Assembly: GCF_006345805.1 (NCBI RefSeq)
Contig: NW_021826951.1
Span: 1-11,549, forward strand
Origin: Octopus sinensis
Taxonomy: Eukaryota
DNA: 11,549 nt
Reading direction: 5' to 3'
The position numbers and the translations under genes are program-made. Shown one piece after another: positions 5,122 through 11,172 of the stretch; within the stretch, counting starts at the first letter, position 1, and the number at the start of each line of letters is the position of its first letter. Below the pieces are notes generated by a model. That model saw nothing but the letters and a program-made list of their open reading frames with translations, was not told the origin of the DNA and ran no database searches.

Positions 5122-5456
5122 GCTTGCTTCCCAACCACATGATTCCAGGTTCAGTCCCACTGTGTGACACCTTGGGAAGGTGTCTTCTACTATAATACTG
5201 GGTCGATCAAAGCCTTGTGGGTGAATTTGGTAAACAGAAACTGAAAGAAGCTCATTGTATATGCATGTGTGTGTATGTGTGTGCATGCACGTGTGTCTGT
5301 GTGTATGTGAGAGATATTTTCTGTGTTTGTCCCTCAACACTGCTTGACAACCGTTGTTGGTGTATTTACTTCTCTGTAAGTCAGCTGTTTAGCCAAAGAG
5401 ACATGTAGAATAAGAGAGTATTGTAGTTCGCTTGAAGCGTTGTGTATTGTTTGTAA

Positions 5457-5839
5457 GTGGAGGCGCAATGGCCCAGTGGTTAGGGCAGCGGACTCGCTGT
5501 CGTAGGATCGCGGTTTCGCTTCCCAGACCGGGCGTTGTGAGTGTTTATTGAGCGAACACCTAAAGCTCCAGGAGGCTCGGCAGGGGATGGTGGTGATCCC
5601 TGCTGTACTCTTTCACACCACTTTTTTTCTTACTCTTACTTCCTGTTTCTGTTGTACCTGTATTTCAAAGGTCCCGGCTTGTCACTCTCTGTGTCATGCT
5701 GAATATCCCCGAGAACTACGTTAAGGGTACACGTGTCTGTGGAGTGCTCAGCCACTTACACGTTAATTTCACGAGCAGGCTGTTCCGTTGATTCGGATCA
5801 ACCAGAACCCTTGTCGTCGTAACCGACGGAGTGCTTCCA
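5457..5839 (+). mobile_element. tRNA-derived SINE family C, full length
   Basis: tRNA-like head with A box TGGCCCAGTGG (5469-5479) and B-box-like GGTTTCGCTTCC (about 5512-5523). CpG-rich body. Perfect 11-bp TSD attgtttgtaa at 5446-5456 and 5840-5850. Confidence 0.9.
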
Positions 5840-5927
5840 ATTGTTTGTAAAAAATATAAAGTTTTGAATGGTACAACAACGGACTATAATACAAACAACG
5901 GGCTATATACCTGTTGTAATTTAACCA

Positions 5928-5984
5928 TCCATAGTCCGATGATATTTCGGAATAAAATTCCTTCTTTAGATATTTTTAGATGGA
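5928..5984 (-). ncRNA. Minimal type I hammerhead ribozyme motif, core-mutated copy
   Basis: Minus strand reads CTAAAGA-a-GGAAT-ttt-ATTCC-GAAA-TA-TC. Helix II is perfect but the core has G5A. Confidence 0.55.
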
Positions 5985-6068
5985 GTCACGGCTATAATCA
6001 GTTTTCCAACGGGTTTTTTTTTTTCCGGAAAAAAGAAAAGCCGTTGGAAAACCAATTATAGCAACAAC

Positions 6069-6125
6069 TCCATCTAAAAATATCTGAAGAAGGTATTTTA
6101 TTCCGAAATATCATCGGACTATGGA
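6069..6125 (+). ncRNA. Minimal type I hammerhead ribozyme motif with intact core
   Basis: CTGAAGA (6084-6090), A, helix II GGTAT-ttt-ATTCC (6092-6104), GAAA (6105-6108), palindromic ATAT in place of helix III, predicted AUC cleavage after 6112. Helix I is weak: 2 bp plus tccat/atgga across an internal loop. Confidence 0.65.
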
Positions 6126-6148
6126 TGACCCAATTACAACAGGTATAT

Positions 6149-6945
6149 TCTTTTTCTTTTTTTTCCTTTTTACTTGTTTCAGTCATTTGACTGAGCCATG
6201 CTGGAGCACCACCTTTAGTCGAGCAAATCGACCCCCAGGATTTATTCTTTGTAAGCCCAGTACTTATTCTATCGGTCTCTTTTGGCGAACCACTAAGTGA
6301 CGGGGACGTAAACACACCAGCATCGGTTGTCAAGAAATGCTAGAGGGACAAACACAGACACACAAACAACACACACACACACACACACAATATATATATA
6401 TACTAGCAGTATCGCCCGGCGTTGCTCGGTTTGTAAGGGAAATAACTATAAAGCATTTTTAGAGAGTTAAGCCAAAAAATAGCAAAAAAATGGAAAAAAA
6501 ATGATGGTAAATTTTTTTGAGAGTTAAAAGGGTCGAGTTGCGTCCCCTAGACAGTCTGTGGTTGTTGTTTCTGATTCTCGACCCCATGTCGAATTTATCG
6601 ATTTTTTCAGAACTGGGGGGAACTTTTCACAATTTTCGCTTGCGTTAGTTTTGAATTATGACATTGGGCTATGTGTGGTCAAGTTTCATCAGAATCGGTT
6701 GAAAGCCGTGGTCAGGGAGAGGGTACAAGCAACAGACACACAGAAACACGCACAGACAAACTGCCGTTTATATATAGAGAGATATACATATATACGACAG
6801 GCTTCTTTCAGTTTCCGTCTACCAAATCCACTCACAAGGCTTTGGTCGGCCCGGGGCTATAGTAGAAGACACTCGCCCAAGATGCCACGCAGTGGGACTG
6901 AACCCGGAACCATGTGGCTACTTACCACACAGCCACTCCTGTGCC
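6149..6945 (-). mobile_element. SINE family A, copy 4, inserted in the right arm of foldback 1 and itself interrupted by a Helitron
   Basis: Reverse complement of family A at 6149-6402 and 6783-6945. Short atat duplication at 6145-6148 and 6947-6950. Confidence 0.9.
6403..6782 (-). mobile_element. Non-autonomous Helitron (380 bp)
   Basis: On the minus strand it begins TC (6782) and ends CTAG (6406-6403), with a subterminal GC hairpin ccgagcaacgccgg. Inserted between A and T with no TSD. A short tgtc/tgtg repeat lies near the 5' end, as in Lep1-type elements. Confidence 0.85.
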
Positions 6946-6975
6946 CATATAGTCCATTTTTTTGCATTATAGTGC

Positions 6976-7005
6976 ATTGTTGTACCATTCATTGTTGTAC
7001 CATTC
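6976..7005 (+). repeat. 15-bp tandem duplication attgttgtaccattc x2
   Basis: Direct observation. The opposite arm of the foldback has a single copy. Confidence 0.95.
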
Positions 7006-7629
7006 AAAACTTTTTATTCTTTATATAGAATAAGCACCAGATTCAAAACAAAAAAACAAGTTCTAGGGTTGATTCCTTTGACAAAGAATTCTTCATGATG
7101 GTTCCTTAGCATCATCGCAGCCTGAAACAGGTGAAAAAGTATCATCAGAATATTCTTCATTATGTCATATCTACTCGGTTGCTTCAATTTTAGTCGAAAA
7201 TATTTGATGTGGTCTAGTTCTTAACTTCACTCCAGTTTCTTCTTTATTTTTCGTAATAGTGTAGGTTGGATAGATCTACACAACTACCTTTGATATACTA
7301 TCTCTTTTACTTTTTTATTTATTTATTTATTTATTTCAGTCATTTGACTGCAGCCATGCTGGGGCACCACCTTTAGTCGAGCAAATCGACTCCAGGACTT
7401 AATGTTTGTAAACTTAGTACATATTCTTCTATCAGTCTCTTTTACCGACGCGCTAAGTTATGGAGAAGTAAACACACCAGCATCGGTTGTCAAGCGATGT
7501 TGGAGGGGGGGCAAACACAGACACACAAACATATACACACACATACATATATTTAAAATGTGACCGCGTGTGTACCGTTGGTGATTTTATTCCTCCGTCT
7601 TCCCTTCCTTGAATCTTTCCTTTTTCTAT

Positions 7630-7664
7630 GTTTCTGACAAAGAGCTCCGCTCGAAACGTTAAAC
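7630..7664 (+). ncRNA. Degenerate minimal type I hammerhead ribozyme motif
   Basis: GTTT-CTGACAA-a-GAGC-tcc-GCTC-GAAA-CG-TT-AAAC. Helix I gttt/aaac, helix II gagc/gctc, palindromic ACGT at helix III. One core change (G8A, at a CpG). Confidence 0.65.
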
Positions 7665-7918
7665 CCTCCTTCTTTCCTTCCTTTCCTGAGTGTCCACTAA
7701 CACTATACTTGTTCCACGTCCTCACGCTGTTGTGTTTTCTCTTTATGTTTTCATGTTTGTATAAACTATATATACATATATATATATGTATGTGTATATA
7801 TATATATATATATATATAAAGTTAATCCAAACAAGAAAACACAAAAAAACACAACAACGCGAGGACGTGGAACGAATATAGTATTATTGGACACTCAGGA
7901 AAGAAGGGAAGAAGGAGG

Positions 7919-7953
7919 GTTTAACGTTTTGAGCGGAGCTCTTTGTCGGAAAC
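7919..7953 (-). ncRNA. Degenerate minimal hammerhead motif (second arm)
   Basis: Minus strand reads GTTT-CCGACAA-a-GAGC-tcc-GCTC-AAAA-CG-TT-AAAC. Helices are preserved but there are three core changes. Confidence 0.5.
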
Positions 7954-8471
7954 ATAAGAGAAGGAAAGATCCAGAGAAGGGAAGACAGAGGAAAAAAATC
8001 GCCAACAGTACACACGAGGTCACATATACATATATGCAACGGGCTTCTTTCAGTTTCTGTCTACCAAATCCACTCACAAGGCTTTGGTCAGCCCAAAGCT
8101 ATAGTAGAAGACACTTGCCCAAGGTGCCATGCAGTGGGACTGATCCCGGAACCATGTGGTTGGTAAACAAGCTACTTACCACACAGCCATTTCTACCCCT
8201 CGAAACTTTTTCTATATTTATTGTTTTCGGTAAGATGGTACATAACTGTCTAAATTCATGCATGTCTAGGCTTCTACAATATTAGTTACTGATTAATATT
8301 TAGAATGCTGACATTTAACTTATGTCACAATTTGCAAAGACTAGCAGAGCTAGTTATGCGTTCCCATGGGGCTAATAACTGATTAACTGTATTTGTAATG
8401 GCAAGAGTGACAATGAAATATGTTTGCAGCTCAGTGGACCTAGTGTATTAGGGAAGAGTGGGGGGGTGTAA

Positions 8472-10888: not shown

Positions 10889-11172
10889 AAAGCTGATTCG
10901 AAGACTACAAATCCATGCCATCACTGGCACTTTAAAATATCTGTAAAACTTTCCTGAAATTTATCATAAAATCATTTCTGAACATGTCTAGACATGCAAC
11001 TATATGCATGGGAATACATACAGAAATCTAAGCACACAAATCGGCACATATGTATACATACAAAAATACCCTGATGATGTTGTTGAAATTCCAGTGAAGA
11101 AGTTTTGGATCAAAGGTTAGAAACCAGCTCTTTCTCTATTGAGAAGAAATTTTGAAATAAAACTGAATAATG

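Follow-up and report, generated by a model that had tools for sequence, protein, structure and literature searches.

The window analysed here, 11,549 nt of Octopus sinensis DNA (contig NW_021826951.1), probably carries at 6084–6112 of the plus strand a mutated minimal hammerhead of a high-copy repeat, likely the 3′ pseudo-LTR of a PLE, in a copy that is likely not to cleave. The kind is already published: minimal hammerheads of PLE pseudo-LTRs have been described in metazoans (Cervera and de la Pena 2014, PMC4209133), where one animal genome can hold thousands of them. The family represented in the window, by a decayed copy, is a new one of this known kind, and no paper on it was found. The window as a whole is A/T-rich, repeat-rich eukaryotic DNA without a convincing gene, and its SINE-like repeats, we take it, resemble octopus SINEs.

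Core and helices of the right-arm motif

The motif is a minimal type I hammerhead core in the right arm of an inverted repeat, with a predicted cut after C6112. Its first core box, CUGAAGA, occupies 6084–6090 (letters read directly on the right arm) and is followed by an extra A at 6091, between core positions 9 and 10.1. Helix II (6092–6104) has five positions per side (6092–6096 with 6100–6104) around a 3-nt loop that varies in the family; it begins with the G10.1–C11.1 pair (G6092–C6104) and contains a U-U mismatch at 6094/6102, in which the letter at 6094 is private to the right arm. The second core box, GAAA (6105–6108), is followed by UA and then by UC (6111–6112), and a palindromic AUAU, with U6109 and A6110 at 15.2 and 16.2, stands in place of helix III. 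Both boxes of the consensus, CUGANGA and GAAANNUH, are matched, at 11 of 11 core letters plus C17. In the helix I region (6069–6125) there are two proximal pairs (6082–6083 with 6113–6114) and five distal ones (6069–6073 with 6121–6125). A preliminary description of this DNA had reported intact core letters, a helix III reduced to AUAU as in minimal Penelope-type hammerheads and a proximal helix I of 2 bp, and all of these were borne out.

With the minimal hammerheads described in PMC4209133 the locus shares the type I build, both core boxes, the extra base between positions 9 and 10.1, G10.1–C11.1, the palindromic 15.2/16.2, the absence of helix III, dispersed truncated copies and opposite-strand pairs, the last of which that paper already reports for hammerhead motifs. 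The junction GAAA-U-A-U-C is also found in the Nematostella and Latimeria entries of its Fig. S3. The right arm differs in its mismatched helix II and its 2-bp A-U helix I, and it fails the descriptor given there. The Penelope hammerhead of D. virilis, as shown in the same source, likewise has a 2-bp helix I and an extra base before helix II, but its helix I consists of two G-C pairs, its helix II is longer and it has a 2-nt palindromic helix III insertion.

The bare core pattern is at chance level, with two matches in the window and at least two also in 32 of 200 shuffles. An Rfam scan of the whole window gave no hammerhead match among the best 150 of 151 rows, and a scan of 6045–6150 gave three rows, none of them a hammerhead; the rows are hairpin look-alikes with scores below gathering. 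These results would suit a chance match in A/T-rich repeat DNA, a reading that we nevertheless regard as having next to no likelihood. Once structure is considered, the core together with its helices exceeds chance, at 2 of 1,000 shuffles, a figure obtained with a descriptor (core, helix II of at least 4 with one mismatch allowed, helix I of at least 2) that was relaxed only after the motif had been seen. The family majority described below, moreover, restores exactly the core and stem letters. We conclude that the motif of the family is, very probably, a genuine minimal hammerhead of the PLE type.

The strict descriptor of PMC4209133 (Fig. S7), in which helix II has 3–7 contiguous pairs and helix I has 3–7 pairs adjoining the core, had no match in the native window. 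The right arm fails it on helix II, through the U-U mismatch at 6094, where the left arm and the family majority pass, and both arms fail it on helix I (2 bp).

Elsewhere in the window, a second, unrelated head-to-head pair (7546–7759 and 7828–8036) contains a minimal hammerhead-like motif with C3 at 7634, H17 at 7660, 4-bp helices I and II and a palindromic ACGU. It carries G8A in both arms, its minus-strand arm is also changed at U4 and G12, and its one-change motif occurred in 2 of 1,000 shuffles; from its sequence, the pair is likely another decayed PLE family. The bare core-pattern match at 11071–11091 fails the structure descriptor and may be what is left of a third family, one whose helix II is long.

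Layout of the inverted unit

The whole unit spans 5415–7025 and is built of head-to-head arms, a one-sided tail, a target duplication and two later SINE-like insertions. The left arm (5846–6026, minus strand, from the arm alignment) is about 180 nt long and 5′-truncated at the centre, and the right arm runs on the plus strand through 6027–6148 (repeat finder) and, past a nested insert, through 6947–7025, where it ends at the place at which most family copies end. The continuation contains a 15-nt tandem duplication at 6975–7006. The repeat finder alone gave arms of 5905–6026 and 6027–6148, and the 122-nt arm length read earlier gives way to arms of about 180 nt in the unit as now delimited. 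With the inserts skipped, the arms are identical at 158 of 181 aligned letters, and both stop 57 nt 5′ of the motif. At 6140–6148 and at 5905–5913 (minus strand), 28 nt past the cut site, the arms resemble a splice donor. Introns close to this place are commonly kept by PLEs.

Only the left arm has a tail, an A/C-rich 37 nt at 5415–5451 (minus strand) with a weak 4-bp hairpin, which a later SINE separates from the arm. The unit is bounded by a 9-bp target duplication (5406–5414 and 7026–7034, plus strand), the left copy of which lies inside an older SINE that resumes at the right copy; the two halves of this SINE join, aligning with consecutive parts of one intact copy. The first later insertion (5457–5839, plus strand), which we assume to be SINE-like, has an 11-bp target duplication at 5446–5456 and 5840–5850. 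The second (6149–6946, minus strand, about 800 nt) is a copy of the common SINE-like repeat of the window, has a 4-letter duplication (6145–6148/6947–6950) and is itself split by a further, presumably Helitron-like insert at about 6396–6774. Across 5325–7140, insertions are thus nested four levels deep, comprising the older SINE, the inverted unit, the two SINE-like inserts and the insert at about 6396–6774.

The left arm holds its own hammerhead copy at 5941–5969 on the minus strand (C3 at 5969), with a perfect helix II and a private G5A at 5967. G5 is needed for hammerhead activity. The preliminary description had the two arms carrying complementary defects, and each arm does have one, but G5A and the helix II mismatch, each private to its arm, are just two of the 14 differences counted between them. 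Selection for mutual complementation was considered and rejected on this ground, and because neither defect has the majority letter of the family. One letter common to both arms, at 6078/5975, is missing from 94–99% of the family depth, as expected if one template gave both.

A comparable layout is known from PLEs, for which Craig et al. 2021 (PMC8557442) describe an inverted 5′-truncated copy with a 30–40 bp tail at one end, and the locus shares with it the head-to-head truncated arms and the 37-nt A/C-rich tail at one end. Relative to the insertions described there and in PMC11167929, no ORF part is kept here and a clean 9-bp target duplication is visible. In Anolis Poseidon, according to the latter paper, an AC-rich stem loop 85–92 nt beyond the hammerhead cut is where reverse transcription begins, and the tail is the stretch between two start sites; here the distance from the cut site to the common end of the family is 93 nt. 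A single retrotransposition event may have laid the two 5′-truncated copies head to head, with reverse transcription starting at two nearby sites so as to leave one arm with a tail and the other without. A check against Naiad, using five 13–14 letter terms, gave 0 matches in the supplement text of PMC8557442 with long runs cut. EN+ PLEs encode a telomerase-like RT and a GIY-YIG endonuclease; no gene for either was found in the window, which contains truncated arms only, and we infer the PLE membership of the family from layout and motif.

The repeat family in public sequencing runs

Part of the stretch is contained in 17 of 19 listed public runs, none of them recorded as RNA. Contigs of four runs (X1, X2, X3 and X9, representing three organisms) were aligned at 80% likeness to the left arm (5841–6050), right-arm places being 12053 minus left-arm places. 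Each of the four gave 609–1,029 aligned contigs, and the motif-bearing repeat is a high-copy dispersed family, summed contig depth not being equal to copy number. All four show low-agreement loose ends before 5848, the sign of a common 3′ end, which coincides with the end of the tail-less right arm. Depth at the centre (6037–6050) is 0–121, as one or two contigs would give, whereas the arm reaches tens of thousands, and runs X1 and X2 have another fold-back joint elsewhere (5923/6010); the centre is therefore specific to this insertion.

These depths bear on whether the unit could be a miniature inverted-repeat DNA transposon (MITE) in which the hammerhead letters are incidental. A target duplication beside long inverted arms is what a MITE would have, but the ends of the unit are asymmetric, with the 37-nt tail on one side, its centre stands at single-contig depth with a different fold-back joint in X1 and X2, core plus helices are reached by only 2 of 1,000 shuffles and the motif shows the five traits diagnostic of minimal hammerheads in PLEs, which makes the MITE reading highly improbable.

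Depth falls steeply 5′ of the motif in the four runs, which might partly reflect subfamily divergence and not truncation. Such a fall, with most copies short and no ORF seen, would fit a SINE- or retrozyme-like hammerhead repeat, non-autonomous and lacking an ORF, that makes use of PLE proteins without being the end of a coding element itself; animal retrozymes have been proposed (bioRxiv 10.64898/2026.07.22.740005) to be pseudo-LTR derivatives. Animal non-LTR retrozymes, as far as the sources used describe them, share with the family a type I hammerhead, the lack of an ORF and dependence on dimers, but they form tandem arrays with a motif per unit on one strand, whereas the motifs here are inverted and the window has no tandem array with a hammerhead per unit. 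The inverted pair with its one-sided tail is, in addition, the ordinary layout of a truncated PLE insertion (PMC8557442). We consider an ORF-less repeat of this sort unlikely and prefer the pseudo-LTR of a PLE.

Variant rows were counted at 2% or more, and the 29-nt motif has five such places in left-arm numbering. At 5967 the family letter is G5, in 97–99% of the depth of the four runs, and at 5948, a CpG position, G12A occurs at 1–10%, the family G12 making up 90–99%. Variants at 5955 and 5956, in loop II, reach 81% in X9 and 18–24% in X1–X3. C17U at 5941 accounts for 5–57% of the depth; it adjoins the insertion site described below, where an alignment effect is possible, and is not used as evidence. 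No variant row of at least 2% was seen at any of the 10 stem positions of helix II (left-arm places 5949–5961) in the four runs, and two of the three loop places have one. A check for conservation or covariation across copies, which the preliminary description had put forward, came out in part: the helix II stem and G5 are conserved, but with the stem invariant no compensatory pair change in helix II was seen in the four runs. Since 5841–5879, outside the motif, is likewise without variant rows, this invariance is not special to the ribozyme. Two subfamily differences fall in the motif, both in the loop, an enrichment with P of 0.007–0.05 for positions chosen afterwards. Evidence for selection on the motif, as far as these variants suggest, is thin.

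The ancestral form that the preliminary description had reconstructed stands in that both repaired letters are the family majority, but its helix I stays at 2 bp and the strict descriptor gave no match to it either. A share of family copies has a two-letter insertion after the cut site that takes helix I from 2 to 4 pairs, and this insertion form passes the strict descriptor in silico, where the native sequence and the reconstruction do not. It was seen as a gapped form in 4, 7, 0 and 7 contigs of the four runs, and as loose ends at 5939/5940, numbering 13 and 13 in X1, 9 and 16 in X2 and 7 in X3; depth dips at the insertion site in X1–X3. Insertion-free, window-like copies are not rare, as 29 of 32 listed pieces include some that are gap-free across the site. 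The short helix I of 2 bp could mark a subfamily or have arisen by slippage more than once. A variant at 5972 in X9 (3%, 10 contigs, phase not given) would add a third helix I pair to the short form, and a compensatory length change in helix I is a lead only. Run X9 is dominated by a subfamily other than that of X1–X3 (for example at 5896, 5902, 5926, 5930 and 5955); it has no depth dip at the insertion site, and its fall 5′ of the core is steeper than in X1–X3.

A scan of metagenome contigs for an exact 22-letter string gave 0 matches, and a degenerate motif scan gave 8 loci in metagenome contigs and 0 in viral contigs. Two of the eight lie inside long ORFs and were set aside as apparent chance matches. 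The other six (L002–L006 and L008, three of them identical) are hammerhead-like; they share the junction, have a longer helix II and by sequence appear to be similarly built but unrelated hammerheads in apparent animal host DNA. The ORF lists of two of the eight loci contained nothing recognised as RT by inspection.

In the extracted text of PMC4209133 Fig. S3, with its 56 motifs, the family was not found. The literature found on hammerheads in octopus or cephalopods was limited to general PLE and genome papers. The repeat annotation of Octopus vulgaris (PMC13282606) lists Penelope families and does not use the word ribozyme in its main-text passages, and its supplements may hold the family.

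Predicted folding and the prospects of cleavage

The best predicted fold of 6069–6125 is not a hammerhead. Two competing hairpins form instead, one of 9 bp (6077–6085/6091–6099) that is partly created by the 6094 change and covers the first core box, and one (6102–6106/6114–6118) that covers GAAA. The hammerhead-like ensemble of the native right arm lies 14.9 kcal/mol above the free ensemble; the gap narrows to 6.5 kcal/mol with the family letter at 6094 and to 3.4 kcal/mol with three family letters and the two-letter insertion, all these energies, like those that follow, ignoring core and tertiary contacts so that their ranking alone is informative. For a tandem double-hammerhead, the distance above the best fold is 39 kcal/mol for the native sequence, 21 for the reconstruction and 11.5 for the insertion form.

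Read-through RNA from either strand is predicted to fold into a hairpin of about 120 bp (about −157 kcal/mol), and in plus-strand read-through the left arm pairs with 27 of the 29 motif positions, each with P of at least 0.99, which agrees, as a prediction, with the earlier suggestion that a read-through transcript would hide the ribozyme in the long hairpin. Because the motifs occupy opposite strands, a tandem pair cannot occur in any transcript of the unit. No second same-strand motif was found within the window, where the best other local match scores 25–26, and a dimer in cis cannot therefore form there. The proposal that the motif cleaves as a dimer is not borne out at this locus: the descriptor fails, the core is predicted to be buried and the partner is on the other strand.

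The right-arm motif in its native form could still be active, cleaving as a dimer formed in trans with another transcript of the family or with that of the left arm. Its 11 core letters and C17 are those of the consensus, AUAU is palindromic, the family offers many potential partners and, according to PMC11167929, protein can assist PLE hammerheads. The same paper reports of the anole motif that it needed the element's protein, that insertion in vitro did not depend on the motif and that RNA-seq showed no ends from it. We hold activity of the native copy to be very unlikely, because its private helix II mismatch makes the 9-bp hairpin over the first core box, its tandem double-hammerhead is the least favourable of those compared (39 against 11.5 kcal/mol for the insertion form), the window lacks a second same-strand copy and even intact minimal motifs cleave only weakly as dimers, the Schistosoma motif having no activity as a monomer and low activity as a dimer (PMC4209133). 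Being mutated, predicted to misfold and without a same-strand partner in the window, the right-arm copy is likely a dead relic.

By contrast, tandem pseudo-LTRs in one RNA of the intact parent element would pair through AUAU into a double hammerhead, and the paired motifs would cut after C17, probably aided by the element's protein. This picture follows the literature, in which the relevant passages of one review state the tandem pseudo-LTR model (PMC6765202) and those of another have dimer cleavage use two tandem copies within one RNA (PMC6155905). At the present locus, the opposite-strand motifs, the damaging change in each and the 120-bp hairpin of read-through RNA would leave no such arrangement.

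A further reading, to which we give only a slight chance, holds that the family has split into subfamilies in which helix I changed in length on both strands together, by a 2-bp compensatory indel, and that head-to-head pairs like the present one are natural two-part ribozymes that cleave in trans. Divergent transcripts from the centre would then meet, and the intact right core would cut the left transcript. If true, the change in helix I length would show selection for cleavage, in a lineage for which no published PLE hammerhead was found.

On the preferred reading, a mutated pseudo-LTR hammerhead of a PLE, the locus is a clean example of an inverted, one-tailed insertion, with a right-arm copy that is unlikely to act. 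PLE minimal hammerheads number thousands per animal genome; with its natural short and long forms of helix I, this octopus family would offer a testable case.
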